Origin: a virus | Taxonomy: Duplodnaviria > Heunggongvirae > Uroviricota > Caudoviricetes | Length of the DNA: 41,597 bases | Strand: one strand, 5' to 3' | Virus record (IMG/VR): IMGVR_UViG_640753023_000007 | Shown: positions 8,777-19,048 of the stretch, one piece after another | How the letters are laid out: the number at the start of each line of letters is the position of its first letter | Numbering within the stretch: position 1 is the stretch's first letter | The notes under the pieces: generated by a model | What the model was told of the DNA's origin: nothing | Database searches by the model: none | The model's input: only the letters and a program-made list of their open reading frames with translations | Program-made: the position numbers and the translations under genes

Positions 8777-8815
8777 TGTTTACCGCCCTGTAAATTGTAG
8801 ATAAAAGTGGTTTCA

Positions 8816-13369: not shown

Positions 13370-13711
13370 ATGGATTATTCACAGTTAAGTGATTTTGAAA
13401 TTAACAGAATGGTAGGAGACATAATTTTTAAAGGCCTTTGGGCAAGTAAACCGGAAACATCAGGGAATAACACCAACAAATGGTATTACGGAAATGCTGA
13501 TACAACTTTTGAGCCATTAAATCATTTGCCTGACTACTGCAATGATCCGAGCGCTTCATGGCCGATTATTGAGAAATACAGGATTTCTATCTTAGACCAG
13601 TTAACTGAATGGTGTGTGGATGCAAAAGGCGTAAGCCCAATATTTGATACCAGACCTCTCCGCGCCGCCATGATTGTCTTTCTCCTGATGCAGGAGGCCA
13701 ATAATGCTTAG
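13370..13711 (+). CDS. Hypothetical nin-region protein (NinX-like)
   Basis: Track ORF 13328-13711; start placed at Met with AGGA 8 nt upstream; position between ninE and ninF. Confidence 0.45.
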
Positions 13712-13898
13712 CCCATCTCAATCCCTTCAATACCTGAAAGAAAGCATAGAGCGGGCTTCAATGTGCACAGAGTGGATTCTATCTAGGTTTAGCGCATACA
13801 GAAGATTGCCGGTAAAGGGCATGCCAAGCAAGTCGATGCTGCATATGCAAAAGAATGCGCGCTGGAAGGTATGGCGAGAACACAGGTTATGTGGCTGA
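13704..13898 (+). CDS. ninF: NinF-like protein with divergent C-terminal part
   Basis: 64-aa ORF; first 18 residues ([18 protein letters not shown]) resemble lambda NinF, remainder does not; overlaps upstream ORF stop. Confidence 0.5.
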
Positions 13899-13917
13899 AA
13901 GAGGGGGTTATTAAGGC

Positions 13918-14280
13918 GTGAATACCTACAGCATCACATTACCCTGGCCTCCGAGCAATAATCGCTATTACCGCCATAATCGCGGGCGCACGCACGTCAG
14001 CGCAGAGGGGCAGGCATACCGCGATAACGTCGCCCGAATCATTAAAAACGCAATGCTGGATATCGGCCTGGCTATGCCTGTGAAAATCCGCATTGAGTGC
14101 CACATGCCGGATCGCCGTCGCCGTGACCTGGATAATCTGCAAAAAGCCGCTTTTGACGCACTCACTAAAGCAGGTTTCTGGCTGGATGATGCTCAGGTCG
14201 TTGATTACCGCGTTGTGAAGATGCCTGTTACCAAAGGTGGGAGGCTGGAACTGACCATCACCGAAATGGGGAATGAATGA
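13918..14280 (+). CDS. rusA: RusA Holliday junction resolvase
   Basis: 120-aa [47 protein letters not shown]... matching E. coli DLP12 RusA; occupies the ninG slot. Confidence 0.9.
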
Positions 14281-14417
14281 TGTTTGAGTTTAATATGGCA
14301 GAACTTCTTCGCCACCGCTGGGGGCGTCTGCGCTTATATCGTTTCCTCGGTTCTGTTTTGACCGATTACCGAATACTGAAGAATTACGCCAAAACCCTGA
14401 CAGGAACAGGAGTATGA
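14280..14417 (+). CDS. ylcG: Small protein YlcG-like (45 aa)
   Basis: Hand translation [45 protein letters not shown]; ATG overlaps rusA stop; matches the small gene following rusA in DLP12 as recalled. Confidence 0.5.
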   Translation: MFEFNMAELLRHRWGRLRLYRFLGSVLTDYRILKNYAKTLTGTGV

Positions 14418-14502
14418 AGTCAGAGATAACAATCAACTAATACTGTTTTGTTGATTTTTGCTTGTAATTGGCGTTCTGGTCTGATTTTTGTGGAGTAAGT
14501 TG

Positions 14503-14886
14503 ATGCGTGATATTCAGATGGTTCTTGAGCGTTGGGGTGCGTGGGCGGCTAATAATCATGAAGATGTGACCTGGTCGTCCATTGCCGCCGGTTTTAAGGG
14601 ATTAATTCCTTCAAAAGTAAAATCTCGCCCGCAATGTTGTGACGATGACGCGATGATCATTTGCGGGTGCATGGCCCGTCTGAAAAAGAACAACAGCGAT
14701 TTACACGATTTATTAGTAGATTATTATGTATGTGGTATGACATTCATGTCACTGGCAAGTAAGCATTGCTGCTCGGATGGTTATATCGGGAAAAGGTTAC
14801 AGAAGGCTGAGGGCATAATTGAAGGGATGTTAATGGCATTAGATATCCGGTTAGATATGGATATCGTTGCTAATAATTCTAATTGA
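14503..14886 (+). CDS. Q: Late gene antiterminator Q (DLP12 QuuD / phage 82-like type)
   Basis: Track ORF 14488-14886 begins with TTG; ATG at 14503 is preceded by GGAG; sequence [24 protein letters not shown]... with Cys-rich zinc-binding region matches QuuD-type Q. Confidence 0.85.
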
Positions 14887-14909
14887 TATGCAATTGTTTA
14901 CTAAAAGTT

Positions 14910-14936
14910 ATTAAAAATGGGGCGTGGAAACGCCCC
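14910..14936 (-). terminator. Candidate intrinsic terminator for the nmpC transcript
   Basis: Hairpin GGGGCG-(6 nt)-CGCCCC; on the minus strand it is followed by ATTTTTAAT. Confidence 0.45.
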
Positions 14937-15025
14937 CAAAATAAAGGGTAATATATAACAGAAGGTTTATATAGTAAGAAGCAAGGTAGTGCTTCTAAAG
15001 GAAGTGGCTTGAGGGCTCCACTTAT

Positions 15026-15064
15026 ATGTTGCGGAGGCAAAGCCTCCCGCAACATATCTTTTTC
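15026..15064 (+). terminator. Candidate tR-prime-like terminator about 140-180 nt downstream of Q
   Basis: 12-bp stem with one bulge (ATGTTGCGGAGG / CCTCCCGCAACAT, loop CAAAG) followed by ATCTTTTTCG on the plus strand; spacing from Q fits a short pR-prime transcript; promoter hexamers only tentatively placed near 14883-14911. Confidence 0.5.
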
Positions 15065-15074
15065 GTAAGTCAGA

Positions 15075-16157
15075 TTAGAACTGATAAACCAGACCTACAG
15101 CGACGATGTCGTCGGTATCAATACCAGCTGTTTTGGTAAACTTACTATCGTCAATTAAGTTGATTTTGTAATCAACAAAAGTGGACATGTTTTTATTAAA
15201 GTAGTAAGTAGCACCGACATCGACATACTTGACTAAGTCTCGGTCACCATGAACACCAAGGTCTTTACCTTTTGACTGAAGGTAAGCAACAGATGGACGC
15301 AGACCGAAGTCAAACTGATATTGTGCTACTGCTTCAAAGTTTTGTGCTTTGTTTGCAATATGGTTATTACCAAAAACGGTCATATTCTGAGTTTCAGAAT
15401 ATGTGGTAGCCAGATAGATATTGTTCGCATCATATTTCAGGCCTGCAGCCCATACTTCCGCATTTTTGCCGGAGGCATTGAATTTGCTCTTACCATAGGC
15501 GACCTGACCGTCAGTGCGATCTGATTTAGCATAGGTTGCACCCACGCCGAATCCTTCATACTCATAAGTAGTGGAGAAACCGAAACCATCACCATTGGCT
15601 TCAGTTACGTCAGTGCGGTCATTTTTACCCTGATACTGAGCAGCAAAGTTCAGGCCATCGACCAGACCAAAGAAGTCGTTGTTACGATAAGTTGCAACAC
15701 CAGTAGTGCGACCAGTCATGAACACATCTGTTTGGGTCCAGGTATCACCACCGAATTCTGGCAGAACGTCAGTCCACGCACCGATGTCGTATGCTACACC
15801 GTAGTTACGGCCGTAATCGATTGAGCCGTAATCACCAAATTTCAGGCCTGCAAATGCAAGACGGGTTTTGTCTTTGGAAGAACCTTGAGATTCAGCACGG
15901 TTGCCTTTGAATTCATATTCCCACTGACCGAAACCAGTCAGTTGATCGTTGATTTGGGTTTCACCTTTGAAGCCAAGACGGGCATAAGTAGTATCACCAT
16001 CATCTGCATCATTAGAGGAGAAGTAGTGCTTGGCATTAACTTTCCCGTATAGATCCAGCTTGTTACTGTCTTTATTATAAATTTCAGCTGCCTGAGCAGA
16101 CATCGCCATCAGTACTGATGCAGCTACAGCAGAAATTGCCACTGTTAATTTTTTCAT
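15075..16157 (-). CDS. nmpC: Outer membrane porin NmpC/OmpD-like (lysogenic conversion moron)
   Basis: Track ORF 15075-16217; start at [23 protein letters not shown] (signal peptide); C-terminal residue F; general-porin family features; inserted antisense between Q and the lysis genes as in DLP12. Confidence 0.9.
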
Positions 16158-16582
16158 TGTACGCCCTTTTTTTGAACTATTATTAAAAAATGATGTCACT
16201 GCGCGATAAATATTCATCTAATCAATGTGATTATTTCAAGATGTAAGTTTTAGTTTCTCATTTAATTTGTGAAGTAGATCTCTATTTTTATCTGAACCTT
16301 TTCTATCTAATCCTATTCATGGCTCTTGTCTGAACAAAAATAAATCTATTAGCTAATTTATATTAATGGCACTTATTTATAAGTGCTCTATAATTCTTTA
16401 GCTTAATTTAAACAAACTAAAAATAACATTGGAAATTATTAACTGGTTATTTGTTGAAGTTTTCTTATGCATTTGTGGTGGTGTTTTGAACACTCGGTGG
16501 CATTCTCACAAATATCATTTAGTAGTTTACGTACGTAAAAAATTGGTTATGCTGTTAAGAGTGGTTACTTCGTCACACAGCT

Positions 16583-16616
16583 TAAACCCGCCGTCGAGCG
16601 GGTTTTTCCATTTTTT
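16583..16616 (+). terminator. Candidate intrinsic terminator upstream of the lysis cassette
   Basis: Plus-strand hairpin AAACCCGC-(6 nt)-GCGGGTTT followed by TTCCATTTTTTG, about 130 nt before the holin start. Confidence 0.5.
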
Positions 16617-16745
16617 GAGTCTCGATATTAGCTGATAACCCAATACCTGAGTTATTCACTGACTCCGAATCTGTTACGTTTCTGCCTTTATTGCGATACG
16701 TAGTATCCCCTTAATTTACACCCGCTTTGTCTGCGAGGTGGGGTT

Positions 16746-16961
16746 ATGAAATCCATGGATAAGTTAACAACGGGTGTCGCCTATGGTACCTCAGCAGGTA
16801 GTGCCGGGTACTGGTTTTTACAGTTGCTCGATAAAGTCACGCCCTCACAGTGGGCGGCAATAGGTGTGCTGGGTAGCCTGGTATTTGGCCTGCTGACGTA
16901 CCTGACAAACCTTTATTTCAAGATTAAAGAAGATAAGCGCAAGGCTGCGAGAGGTGAATAA
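16746..16961 (+). CDS. S: Holin, phage 21 S-type pinholin
   Basis: 71-aa [34 protein letters not shown]...; two TM segments; closely resembles S21 pinholin. Confidence 0.9.
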
Positions 16962-17458
16962 TGCCTCCATCATTACGAAAAGCCGTTGCTGCTGCTATTG
17001 GTGGCGGAGCAATTGCTATAGCATCAGTGTTAATCACTGGCCCAAGTGGTAACGATGGTCTGGAAGGTGTCAGCTACATACCATACAAAGATATTGTTGG
17101 TGTATGGACTGTATGTCACGGGCATACAGGAAAAGACATCATGCTCGGTAAAACGTATACCAAAGCAGAATGCAAAGCCCTCCTGAATAAAGACCTTGCC
17201 ACGGTCGCCAGACAAATTAACCCGTACATCAAAGTCGATATACCGGAAACAATGCGCGGCGCTCTTTACTCATTCGTTTACAACGTGGGTGCTGGCAATT
17301 TCAGAACATCGACGCTTCTTCGCAAAATAAACCAGGGCGATATCAAAGGCGCATGTGATCAGCTACGTCGCTGGACATATGCTGGCGGTAAGCAATGGAA
17401 AGGTCTCATGACTCGTCGTGAGATTGAGCGTGAAATCTGTTTGTGGGGTCAGCAATGA
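16961..17458 (+). CDS. R: SAR endolysin (lysozyme with N-terminal signal-anchor-release domain)
   Basis: 165-aa ORF with Gly/Ala-rich hydrophobic N-terminus ([20 protein letters not shown]) followed by lysozyme domain; matches phage 21 R. Confidence 0.9.
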
Positions 17459-17916
17459 ACAGAGTAACCGCGATTATCTCCGCTCTGGTTATCTGCATCA
17501 TCGTCTGCCTGTCATGGGCTGTTAATCATTACCGTGATAACGCCATTACCTACAAAGCCCAGCGCGACAAAAATGCCAGAGAACTGACGCTGGCGAACGC
17601 GGTAATTACTGACATACAGATGCGTCAGCGTGATGTTGCTGCGCTCGATGCAAAATACACGAAGGAGTTAGCTGATGCGAAAGCTGAAAATGATGCTCTG
17701 CGTGATGATGTTGCCGCTGGTCGTCGTCGGTTGCACATCAAAGCAGTCTGTCAGTCAGTGCGTGAAGCCACCACCGCCTCCGGCGTGGATAATGCAGCCT
17801 CCCCCCGACTGGCAGACACCGCTGAACGGGATTATTTCACCCTCAGAGAGAGGCTGATCACTATGCAAAAACAACTGGAAGGAACCCAGAAGTATATTAA
17901 TGAGCAGTGCAGATAG
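17455..17916 (+). CDS. Rz: Rz i-spanin
   Basis: Track ORF 17443-17916; ATG at 17455 overlaps the endolysin stop; N-terminal TM segment then coiled-coil-like region. Confidence 0.85.
17675..17857 (+). CDS. Rz1: Rz1 o-spanin lipoprotein, embedded in Rz in the +1 frame
   Basis: 60-aa ORF with lipobox (LVVVGC) and proline-rich mature region; GAAGGAG upstream of ATG. Confidence 0.8.
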
Positions 17917-17947
17917 AGCTGCCCATATCGATGGGCAACTCATGCAA

Positions 17948-18241
17948 TTATTGTGAGCAATACACACGCGCTTCCAGCGGAGTATAAATGCCTAAAGTAA
18001 TAAAACCGAGCAATCCATTTACGAATGTTTGCTGGGTTTCTGTTTTAACAACATTTTCTGCACCACCACAAATTTTTGCTGCATCGACAGTTTTCTTCTG
18101 CCCAATTCCCGAAACGAAGAAATGATGGGTGATGGTTTCCTTTGGTGTTACTGCTGTAGGTTTGTTTCCAACAGTAAACGTCTGTTGAGCACATCCTGTA
18201 ATAAGCATTGCCAGAGCGGCAGAAAACAACATTTTTTTCAT
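17948..18241 (-). CDS. bor: Bor lipoprotein (serum resistance)
   Basis: Track ORF 17948-18289; start at MKKMLFSAALAMLITGCAQQ (lipobox LITGC); 97 aa; matches lambda Bor. Confidence 0.9.
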   Translation of the reverse strand: MKKMLFSAALAMLITGCAQQTFTVGNKPTAVTPKETITHHFFVSGIGQKKTVDAAKICGGAENVVKTETQQTFVNGLLGFITLGIYTPLEARVYCSQ

Positions 18242-18721
18242 CTTATTATCCTGCATTGTTAAAAACGGCAGAATCCTATGTGACAACAATTAAACGATAG
18301 TTAAATGGATTGATGAAAATTAAAACTACACAGGTGGGCTCAGACTATTGGAGGAAGTTGGGGACACTCAGAATCCTGTGGAATGAAATAAACCGGTCTA
18401 TCCGTCCATTACCCTTTTAGCTGCGCTGTATCGTCGCCGTATTCCCGCATTAACCATGACCGTAGCCCGACGGGGAATTCCTTCTGCGTGAGTGTGCGGG
18501 AATAATTAAAAACGATGCACACCGGGTTTTTACCGCGTTAATGATTCGCGGGTTTATCCCGGTGCGATGGTGGAAGAAACAGGAAGCTGTATTACAGAAA
18601 GTGCTACTACTGTATCCCGATGCGATGTATGTAATGTGAGTCAGATAATGGCACAGGATGTGGTGATGTGGCAGTCTGGAACACAGGATATATTGTCAGA
18701 ATAAGACCCGTAGGAATAAAA

Positions 18722-19048
18722 ATGAAAAGACGCCTTTTACTACTTTTTCTGTTATCTGTCCTGGCAGTGGGATGCTCGCAGCAAAAAGCTGATGAGCCCC
18801 GGCAATTAGTGACGGTGTATCCACGATATCCGGAATATGCTGCAGCAAATTATATCAAGGGGCTGGTTGAGGTTAAGTTCGATATTGGTGCTGATGGGAC
18901 TGTGACACGGATCGTTTTTCTCCGCTCAGAGCCTCATAATTTGTTTCGTGATGAAGTGGTGAAGGCCATGGCGAAATGGCGATTTGAAAAGAATCGCCCC
19001 TGTCAGGGAGTGAAGAGACAATTTATCTTTACGCCGTCACGTCCTTGA
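18722..19048 (+). CDS. Lipoprotein with TonB C-terminal-like domain (moron)
   Basis: Track ORF 18668-19048; start at MKRRLLLLFLLSVLAVGCSQ (signal peptide plus lipobox) preceded by AGGA; body resembles TonB-C fold pattern (YPRYPEYAAANYIKGLVEVKFDIGADGTV ... VKAMAKWRF). Confidence 0.55.
   Translation: MKRRLLLLFLLSVLAVGCSQQKADEPRQLVTVYPRYPEYAAANYIKGLVEVKFDIGADGTVTRIVFLRSEPHNLFRDEVVKAMAKWRFEKNRPCQGVKRQFIFTPSRP

Follow-up and report, generated by a model that had tools for sequence, protein, structure and literature searches.

An OmpC-family porin module antisense between Q and the holin of a tailed phage, probably placed upstream of the late promoter

In lambda, phage 21, phage 82 and the Stx phages, the late promoter PR' follows directly on the gene for the antiterminator Q; N-modified transcription complexes of lambda ignore intrinsic terminators, and the bor gene of lambda lies inside the late operon, where it is crossed antisense by late transcription. 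Porins carried by lambdoid prophages form a module that is itself textbook knowledge: lc of phage PA-2 is reportedly expressed in lysogens, from a transcript that carries the ipeX sequence, and PA-2 lysogeny is said to lower OmpC, the receptor used by PA-2. The ipeX RNA is described as a repressor of OmpC/OmpF (PMC12197685, PMC5069750, PMC3333887). For the Stx phages, PR' and a 258-nt StxS transcript have been mapped by dRNA-seq and Term-seq (PMC7547250); for the lysis module of DLP12, the SRRz/Rz1 (essD) operon has a separate upstream regulatory region that has been cloned as a reporter fusion, in a paper that, citing Rueggeberg 2013 and 2015, puts the operon under a Q-type antiterminator of the phage (PMC7918800).

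The DNA analysed here is a 41,597-nucleotide stretch of a Caudoviricetes genome (IMG/VR record IMGVR_UViG_640753023_000007; ‘the window’). Working along the plus strand, we see the late antiterminator Q (14503–14886), a QuuD-type protein of 127 aa belonging to the Q21/PF06530 family (Pfam PF06530 at 6.7e-54; RefSeq name quuD), which matches the Q21 structures 6p18/6jnx weakly and shares 81% amino-acid identity with the Q of Stx phage PA2. An nmpC/lc/ompD-like porin gene follows on the minus strand (15075–16157), and beyond this, again on the plus strand, lies the lysis cassette (16746–17916), comprising an S21-type holin (16746–16961; Pfam PF04971, P21 holin S family at 2e-35), a lysozyme (16961–17458; Pfam PF00959) and Rz (17443–17916; Pfam PF03245), with Rz1 (17675–17857, from the list of open reading frames) embedded in the latter. 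Most likely, the locus is the classical porin cassette of lambdoid prophages, known from nmpC in DLP12 and lc in PA-2, seated in the gap between Q and PR' and outside the late operon. The block is found at 100% identity in many E. coli genomes, and at 99.9% in the inducible phages ev017 and PhiR57_1. Phages carrying the exact block have database entries as complete genomes, each with its host strain named, which suggests that the arrangement supports lytic growth.

The porin itself is intact and of the OmpC family, and the first-pass annotation was right to describe a general porin of 360 aa that carries a signal peptide and is encoded antisense in the interval from Q to the holin, in a layout that mirrors DLP12. 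The Pfam family Porin_1 (PF00267) spans the whole protein (E=1.9e-151, profile positions 1–337 of 337) and NCBIfam assigns it as porin OmpC (E=1.4e-156, 521 bits vs a cut-off of 484). Translation starts at MKKLTV, and since the mature chains of OmpC/OmpK36 in the PDB begin to align at residue 24, the first 23 codons (16157–16089) would specify a signal peptide cleaved after SAQA, in front of AEIY. Both the L3 motif PEFGG (as LPEFGGD) and the C-terminal phenylalanine (...VYQF) are present, and homology to solved OmpC (E=1e-137) makes a trimeric, 16-stranded outer-membrane barrel very likely. Some records begin the gene at an ATG at 16217, giving an open reading frame of 380 aa; translation probably does not begin there, because the signal peptide would then be buried. 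As for the limits 14883–16157 first given to the feature, the end at 16157 is retained, the start at 14883 being the stop codon of Q; the porin coding sequence begins at 15075. Identity to relatives is uneven, at 94–98% for the N-terminal half and only 77–84% for the C-terminal half; with respect to K-12 NmpC, the differences fall in short blocks within the C-terminal two-thirds, which we infer to be surface loops.

Between the porin and Q lies what appears to be a structured porin 3' UTR of ~163 nt (14912–15074, minus strand), assigned through folding and identity to DLP12 as the equivalent of the DLP12/PA-2 ipeX RNA, whose published length is 167 nt (PMC12197685). The spacer between Q and the porin is 94% identical to that of DLP12—the ipeX region—and the UTR, read as RNA from the minus strand, has a predicted fold of five hairpins (-53.6 kcal/mol; z = -6.2 against shuffled sequence, vs -4.0 for the plus strand). 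A search of Rfam by E-value over 13500–18500 returned chance-level matches, with neither an ipeX nor a late-leader family among them. At the distal end of the UTR, the terminator scan calls an intrinsic terminator on the minus strand (14909–14936), consisting of a stem at 14919–14936 that folds at -13.8 kcal/mol and is followed by ATTTTT, a tail found on this strand only. Across eight relatives the stem is invariant, with variation confined to the loop, supporting the prediction, made already in the first annotation, that it ends the porin/ipeX transcript.

The first hairpin of the same UTR (~15024–15058) is stronger still, folding at -21.9 kcal/mol on the plus strand and -22.5 on the minus (z = -6.8 and -5.9, respectively); here, the adjoining CTTTTT (15059–15064) occurs on the plus strand only. 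The consensus terminator scan did not call this hairpin, probably owing to a one-base bulge in its stem. Both hairpins (14919–14936 and 15024–15058) are kept in seven diverged relatives, and covariation, scored as G-U versus A-C changes, gave no assignment to one strand or the other, the relatives being too much alike, with stems that are nearly invariant and few changes, which only shift a bulge. The plus-strand element (15024–15064) probably terminates unmodified transcripts on their way out of Q. The two oriented terminators would be crossed, the plus-strand one lying beyond the minus-strand one, such that the transcripts of Q and porin would overlap by ~150 nt. With the terminators crossed in this way, the 3' end of the Q mRNA would be complementary to ipeX over ~150 nt; the lytic switch could in this way be linked to derepression of OmpC/OmpF.

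On its other side, from the start of the porin to PR', the gene is bordered by an AT-rich region (16158–16525, 27–29% GC from the composition profile), which is 90–92% identical in relatives and near-perfectly so over 16158–16300; presumably, the promoter of the porin and its 5' UTR lie here. A consensus scan of the minus strand over 16158–16420 found no porin promoter, and inspection by eye finds weak candidates, such as TTGAAA-18-GAATAT some 45 nt upstream of the ATG. A genomic SELEX study in K-12 reports a peak of RpoS holoenzyme in the interval from insH/nmpC to essD, at a resolution too low to choose between the two promoters. The same consensus scan reports a promoter-like site on the plus strand at 16366–16394.

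It is immediately beyond the AT-rich region that we place PR' (16526–16560, plus strand), with a -35 of TTTACG (16526–16531), a -10 of TATGCT (16548–16553) and a start near 16558–16560. The pair reaches only 8 of 12, and the consensus scan does not call it; the assignment is made by homology and linkage. Hundreds of Stx-phage records contain, directly behind Q, DNA with ~78% identity to 16523–16607 of the window—for phage PA2 the alignment begins within the 3' end of Q—and the -35 and -10 elements of the Stx phages align with those of the window. In L003, counting 258 nt back from the T run of tR' leads to a position 6–8 nt past the -10 TATCAT, a start that agrees with the mapped StxS transcript. 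Directly downstream, the conserved initial transcribed leader TAAGAGTGGTTACTTCGTCAC (16556–16576, plus strand) is invariant in the window, DLP12, an Stx phage and SfII. Within the locus, conservation peaks over the PR' leader segment (16526–16616), at 98–100% vs 77–97% elsewhere. The leader contains a TGGTTA (16562–16567) that repeats the TGGTTA of the promoter (16544–16549) 18 bp upstream; we regard it as a candidate region for Q loading and sigma-dependent pausing, and PR' at 16526 as the putative functional target of Q in this phage. At zero mismatches the leader has a single copy in the window, 190 bp before the holin. A second copy of PR' near Q was considered and discarded, the motif being unique in the window and a two-mismatch match at 8802 being at chance level.

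A plus-strand terminator call follows the leader (16584–16616), made up of a hairpin (16584–16605) that folds at -12 kcal/mol and the tract TTTTTCCATTTTTT; between 16616 and the holin, the scan finds no further terminator. By position this is the candidate tR', and the hairpin is kept in every cargo class described below as well as in the Stx phages. Saying this, the mapped tR' of the Stx phages is a second terminator located 258 nt downstream, rather than this proximal hairpin, and the latter may be an element of the leader and not an efficient terminator.

A survey of 120 viral contigs from IMG/VR sets the position of PR' in a wider context. In 101 of these, a Q of the window's Q family precedes the leader motif on the same strand, at a distance that is either 21–61 bp (25 contigs) or falls into discrete larger classes, mostly filled with antisense cargo; the porin class measures 1672–1691 bp. 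Phage PhiR49_2, in which the leader comes directly after Q, serves as an ‘empty site’, and Q and leader also adjoin in the Stx phages; the elements that flank the porin are thus neighbours in relatives lacking it, as for a moron, and the predicted minus-strand terminator at 14909–14936 would give the insertion the terminator of its own that a moron is expected to bring. In SfII and Lambda_2E9, Q is followed by antisense genes of other kinds, those of SfII lying between Q and the same PR'-like leader. We tentatively propose, at close to an even chance, that in lambdoid phages the short junction between PR' and a Q of the Q933/QuuD/SfII type is a dedicated, recurrent slot for mostly antisense, lysogen-expressed cargo that stays outside the late operon, the possible link here between the lytic switch and ipeX being a corollary. 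One lineage would have the porin together with ipeX in this slot; the cargo of others would be a complete Kiwa system, a PDC-S20 KAP NTPase, an HNH-like protein, a lipocalin or one of several two-gene cassettes of unknown kind. A terminator hairpin appears right after Q in most cargo classes, according to a home-made scan of the cargo gaps that is noisy and suited to qualitative use only.

This arrangement bears on how, if at all, the porin is read from the phage side. In lytic growth, polymerase antiterminated by N might start out at PR, cross the nin region and Q, and read the porin antisense, with the result that porin and ipeX are shut down on induction, the plus-strand hairpin stopping only the unmodified polymerase of the lysogen. 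Q and the porin are convergent, with crossed oriented terminators and an overlap of ~150 nt, and the indifference of N-modified complexes to intrinsic terminators is established lambda biology; the recurrence of a hairpin after Q points the same way, although the scan that produced it is crude. Taken as a whole, we hold this scenario to be possible, at somewhat less than an even chance, and it is compatible with the porin module as described above. Of its parts, N-modified polymerase passing from PR through Q would probably ignore the plus-strand hairpin and enter the porin antisense on induction; some antisense transcription of the porin, by a route that does not depend on Q, is likely.

Far less readily accommodated is the model of the first-pass annotation, in which PR' comes right after Q, the hairpin at 15026–15064 serves as tR', and polymerase modified by Q has to cross the whole of nmpC antisense to reach the lysis and structural genes. 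The position of PR' in lambda and the other phages named at the outset speaks for it, as do the great stability of the hairpin, with a T tract on the plus strand only, and a weak -10-like TATAGT (14970–14975) upstream. However, this TATAGT has no usable -35, and a consensus scan of the plus strand from the Q stop to the hairpin (14887–15025) found no promoter-like site. The conserved leader, missing near Q, has its one copy at 16556–16576, downstream of the porin, and in other phages follows different antisense cargo; the spacer, moreover, folds better as a minus-strand RNA and corresponds to the published ipeX region. The hairpin is real and conserved, with its T tract on the plus strand as first described, but its role as tR' falls away, since it sits within the porin 3' UTR with PR' 1.5 kb downstream and no PR' leader or promoter-like site upstream on the plus strand; an obligatory passage of Q-modified polymerase through nmpC falls with it, and we judge the model as a whole to be most unlikely. 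Also most unlikely is that the porin is a silent, functionless remnant in this host, as it is in E. coli K-12 and B, where the gene is broken by IS5 in the former and by IS1 in a B-derived strain (bioRxiv 10.64898/2026.08.19.745717), since here the open reading frame is intact, bears all the porin hallmarks and is 100% conserved in many genomes, and since excision of the IS restores nmpC expression, with a phenotype attributed to higher drug permeability (bioRxiv 10.64898/2026.08.19.745717).

Returning to the porin module in the Q-to-PR' gap, we envisage a self-contained cassette running opposite to both the early and the late genes of the phage, in which an AT-rich upstream region, the porin, an ipeX-type 3' UTR and a terminator of its own beside the Q stop would follow one another. 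In the lysogen, a promoter belonging to the porin would drive its expression without any need for Q, and the 3' UTR of the porin would lower OmpC and OmpF; acting together, the two would alter permeability and remove a phage receptor. On induction, Q made from the early rightward transcript would load onto polymerase at the downstream PR' (start near 16559), and the modified enzyme would carry on beyond the terminator in the leader to transcribe S, R, Rz and the structural genes without ever crossing the porin; with the start of PR' downstream of the porin, it need not do so. The hairpin at 15024–15064 would serve twice: in the minus-strand RNA it belongs to the 3' UTR, and on the plus strand it has the orientation suited to halt unmodified polymerase leaving Q before it reaches the porin.

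Such a placement would explain why a convergent gene that is strongly expressed in the lysogen need not disturb late transcription, and it alters the predictions for induction experiments: antisense cargo upstream of PR' is expected to be lysogen-expressed and independent of Q, whereas stx, downstream of PR', depends on it. That the porin could alter permeability or receptor availability had been anticipated in the first annotation, and agrees with the published biology of NmpC/Lc and ipeX; porin and ipeX together can change antibiotic permeability and remove the OmpC receptor, effects that would be relevant to the many ExPEC/APEC genomes in which the identical porin block is present.

Among known systems, the closest counterpart is DLP12 of K-12, which has the same genes in the same order and orientation—rusA-ylcG-quuD, an antisense porin, essD-rrrD-rzpD (rzpD/rzoD) and bor—with identities of 97% for Q and 100% for the PR' leader in addition to the 94% of the spacer. 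It differs in the IS5 that interrupts the 3' end of its nmpC, where the window gene is intact; in the C-terminal half of the porin, which is another allele (78% nucleotide identity; 365 aa vs 360 aa here); and in lacking 17 bp between the leader and essD. PA-2 likewise combines a phage-borne porin (lc) with an S21-type holin. The Stx phages (933W/Sakai type, with the StxS RNA) share the homologous Q, the -35, the -10, the leader and the proximal hairpin, but their PR'-tR' cassette abuts Q, whereas here it lies 1.65 kb away; their 258-nt StxS leader and distal tR' are absent from the window. Stx cargo (tRNAs and stx) is downstream of PR', sense and Q-dependent, in contrast to that of the window, which is upstream, antisense and presumably Q-independent. 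Finally, the bor/lom morons of lambda are, like the porin, lysogen-expressed envelope genes with signals of their own, embedded in a lambdoid late region, and a bor homologue is found in the window too (17948–18241, minus strand); but whereas lambda bor sits within the late operon, the porin would lie outside it.

The window is a lambda-like prophage in which, read in the direction of late transcription, O, P, ren, ninB, a methyltransferase gene, rusA, ylcG and Q are followed by the antisense porin gene, then S, R, Rz/Rz1, an antisense bor, and the terminase and structural genes. Q (14503–14886; 127 aa, PF06530, ‘quuD’ in RefSeq) shows only distant kinship with the structurally solved Q21; the holin belongs to the S21 type. 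The porin (15075–16157, minus strand; 360 aa from MKKLTV), a general porin in the first-pass annotation, is securely of the OmpC family: Pfam Porin_1 matches over the entire profile (E=1.9e-151), the NCBIfam ‘porin OmpC’ score lies above the family cut-off, and solved structures of OmpC, OmpK36, OmpF and PhoE align from residue 24 on, thus defining a 23-residue signal peptide ending SAQA/AE. The protein also has the PEFGG motif in loop 3 and ends in Phe. A 380-aa version, annotated in some phage records from an ATG at 16217, is probably wrong, since the signal peptide would then be buried. Further along, between bor and the terminase genes, an ORF at 18668–19048 (plus strand; probable start 18725) combines a lipoprotein-like signal (LLLLFLLSVLAVGC) with a TonB C-terminal domain, with scores that stay below the cut-offs throughout (NCBIfam tonB_Cterm, 1.7e-12; TonB equivalogs, as low as 4.6e-19); annotated as a ‘partial tonB-like membrane protein’ in a related phage record, it may represent a further envelope moron expressed in lysogens.

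In lambda, PR′ lies directly after Q, and it was the assumption of the same arrangement here that turned a hairpin at 15026–15064 into tR′ and so forced Q-modified polymerase to read antisense through the porin. We find instead that the porin most likely sits upstream of PR′, not between PR′ and the late genes; a placement made by homology and linkage. In a search with the porin–holin spacer, 16523–16607 matched hundreds of Stx-phage records at ~78% identity, over DNA located at the 3′ end of Q or immediately beyond it; in the Stx phage PA2 the homology starts within the 3′ end of Q. PR′ of the Stx phages and its terminated transcript, StxS, have been mapped by dRNA-seq and Term-seq, which put the 3′ end 258 nt downstream of the start (PMC7547250). 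When this length is measured back from the T run of the PA2 tR′, the start falls 6–8 nt past a TATCAT −10, with TTTACG as its −35, and base-for-base alignment with this promoter puts PR′ of the window, on the plus strand, at 16526–16531 (−35, TTTACG) and 16548–16553 (−10, TATGCT), with a predicted start at ~16558–16560. The pair is weak by consensus; the block after it (TAAGAGTGGTTAC...CAC) is invariant across the window, DLP12 (the cryptic prophage of K-12), the Stx phage and SfII, and the leader motif within it occurs once in the whole 41.6 kb. No part of the locus is better conserved against seven relatives than the 91-bp PR′ leader segment (98–100%, versus 97% for Q, 94% for the Q–porin spacer, and 94–98% and 77–84% for the N- and C-terminal halves of the porin gene); Q of the window is 81% identical to its Stx-phage counterpart. 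Work on the DLP12 lysis module, in which a distinct regulatory region ahead of the SRRz/Rz1 (essD) operon was cloned as a reporter fusion, agrees with a PR′ downstream of the porin; the same paper cites control of the operon by the phage Q-type antiterminator (PMC7918800, citing Rueggeberg 2013 and 2015).

Beyond PR′, the scan called a plus-strand terminator at 16584–16616, a conserved hairpin followed by a T run, and no other between PR′ and S in the window. As an efficient terminator it remains a candidate, because the mapped tR′ of the Stx phages is a distal one. Stx phages have the same proximal hairpin, with a seven-T run, at about +25 to +50 of PR′ (in PA2, 1562–1587 of the compared locus, L003); many polymerases evidently pass it there, since StxS reaches the distal tR′ at 258 nt. 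The proximal hairpin could contribute to pausing or to the loading of Q. Between the leader and the holin gene, a 17-bp stretch (16661–16677, CTGCCTTTATTGCGATA) is shared, one base shorter, by ev099, Turner and PhiR29_2, and is missing in DLP12, PhiR26_1, Chlobot and PhiR70_1.

A scan of IMG/VR with the leader motif matched at least 120 contigs. Among the matches listed, 101 of 120 have a Q of the window’s family upstream on the same strand; in the remaining 19 the motif is mostly less than 1.6 kb from where the stored DNA ends. Q and the motif, again among the matches listed, lie 21–61 bp apart in 25 contigs; the other distances form discrete larger classes (633, 807, 848, 865, 1121, 1197, 1417, 1462–1583, 1629, 1672–1691, 1703 and 2273–2480 bp), the porin class being that of 1672–1691 bp, with ~40 of these contigs. 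PhiR49_2 provides a clean ‘empty site’: Q and, 38 bp on, the leader, followed by a methylase, tRNAs and the holin. Leader–Q linkage, distance classes and empty site together argue that the porin cassette fills a gap between Q and PR′.

More widely, the gap between Q of the Q933/QuuD/SfII type and the PR′ leader appears as a variable slot with mostly antisense cargo (further examples being contigs L059, L120, L032, L052 and L055). It holds a complete Kiwa system in L100 (KwaA 5.7e-80, KwaB 2.3e-126), a PDC-S20 KAP P-loop NTPase in L031/L110 (1.4e-177), an antisense lipocalin (Blc) in Lambda_2E9, and, in SfII, two unknown antisense genes ahead of a stretch homologous to the PR′-to-holin region of the window. 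Other cargo comprises an HNH-like PDC-M68A protein, an alpha/beta hydrolase, a lipoprotein, an NA37 nucleoid-associated protein together with a partner, and several unknown two-gene cassettes that pair a TM protein of ~150 aa with another of ~310 aa; in the L020 and L103 classes the ORF is instead on the sense strand. The Kiwa system, the KAP NTPase and the HNH-like protein are among the defence systems that related phages carry in this slot, the more interesting by-product of the analysis.

The two hairpins proposed in the first-pass annotation are real, in that both fold, carry oriented T tracts and are kept in DLP12 and six diverged phages; it is the function of one of them that changes. 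That at 14919–14936 (−14 kcal/mol; ATTTTT tail on the minus strand only) was called a minus-strand terminator and corresponds to the point where the porin/ipeX transcript is known to end; the 188-bp Q–porin spacer is 94% identical to that of DLP12. Castillo-Keller et al. (2006) reportedly placed the ipeX RNA after the nmpC stop codon and before the Rho-independent terminator predicted for that gene; the lc transcript of PA-2 is said there to carry the same sequence. As minus-strand RNA the spacer folds into five hairpins far better than shuffled sequence (−53.6 kcal/mol, z = −6.2; plus strand, z = −4.0), and the supposed tR′ is the first hairpin of ipeX (~15024–15058; −22 kcal/mol, z about −6 to −7 on either strand). 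Its T tract, CTTTTT, sits on the plus strand only, which suggests a second role for 15024–15064 in stopping unmodified polymerase leaving Q; a crude scan finds a terminator-like hairpin right after Q in most other cargo classes too. The Q and porin terminators are crossed, the plus-strand one lying beyond the minus-strand one (14912–15064), and if both work the predicted transcripts would overlap by ~150 nt. At its 3′ end, the Q mRNA would therefore be complementary to ~150 nt of the ipeX 3′ UTR; a possible RNA–RNA link from the lytic switch to porin control.

Upstream of the porin start the DNA is AT-rich (27–29% GC), and a consensus scan located no porin promoter there. The same region contains a promoter-like site on the plus strand (16366–16394; ATGGCA-17-TATAAT), ~165 bp upstream of PR′, whose TATAAT is invariant in eight relatives and which overlaps a palindrome, GCACTTAT-TT-ATAAGTGC (16368–16385), perfect in the window and imperfect in relatives. 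Its candidate roles are regulator binding for control of the porin and rightward initiation as a second promoter.

In the scheme that the evidence best supports, porin and ipeX would be transcribed leftward out of the AT-rich region in the lysogen, ending at 14912, with PR′ constitutively active and its RNA terminating after about 50–58 nt. After induction, Q produced from the early mRNA would load at PR′ downstream of the porin, and the Q-loaded polymerase would pass 16584–16616 into S, R and Rz, then run antisense across bor and on into the structural genes; in lambda, bor is likewise read antisense by late transcription. Should the porin be transcribed antisense at all, N-modified polymerase that starts at PR would be the putative source.

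Set against K-12 NmpC, reconstructed by taking out IS5, the porin is identical over the first ~150 residues and differs in short blocks within the C-terminal two-thirds: RSDFDNYTEGNGDG, TQVNAGKVLPEVFASGK and LLDKNDFTKALGVSTDD of NmpC stand opposite blocks of 11, 15 and 17 residues respectively, and FADHFVANK opposite FGNNHIANK. We infer these blocks to be surface loops, and the pattern resembles variation at exposed sites, e.g. receptor or antigenic sites. Among phages, the C-terminal half of the gene (15075–15615; 77–84% nucleotide identity) is far more diverged than the N-terminal half (15616–16157; 94–98%) or either flanking spacer; this contrast, with the clustering of changes, hints at diversifying selection or a shuffling of alleles.

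Many E. coli chromosomes, S88 and ATCC 11775 included, carry at 100% identity the 2.4-kb block that runs from Q across the porin as far as the start of the holin gene; phages whose complete genomes have been deposited (e.g. ev017, PhiR57_1) match it at 99.9%. Of 5426 complete E. coli genomes, 2392 contain at least 80% of the block. Reactivation of a silenced nmpC has been linked to a changed beta-lactam response, attributed to increased drug permeability (2026 preprint, bioRxiv 10.64898/2026.08.19.745717). The locus is the classical nmpC/lc locus, laid out as in K-12 DLP12, where IS5 lies in the 3′ end of nmpC. All but the transcription model is established biology, already known from nmpC of DLP12, lc of PA-2 and ipeX; the correction made here places the porin upstream of PR′, and most likely holds for DLP12 too.
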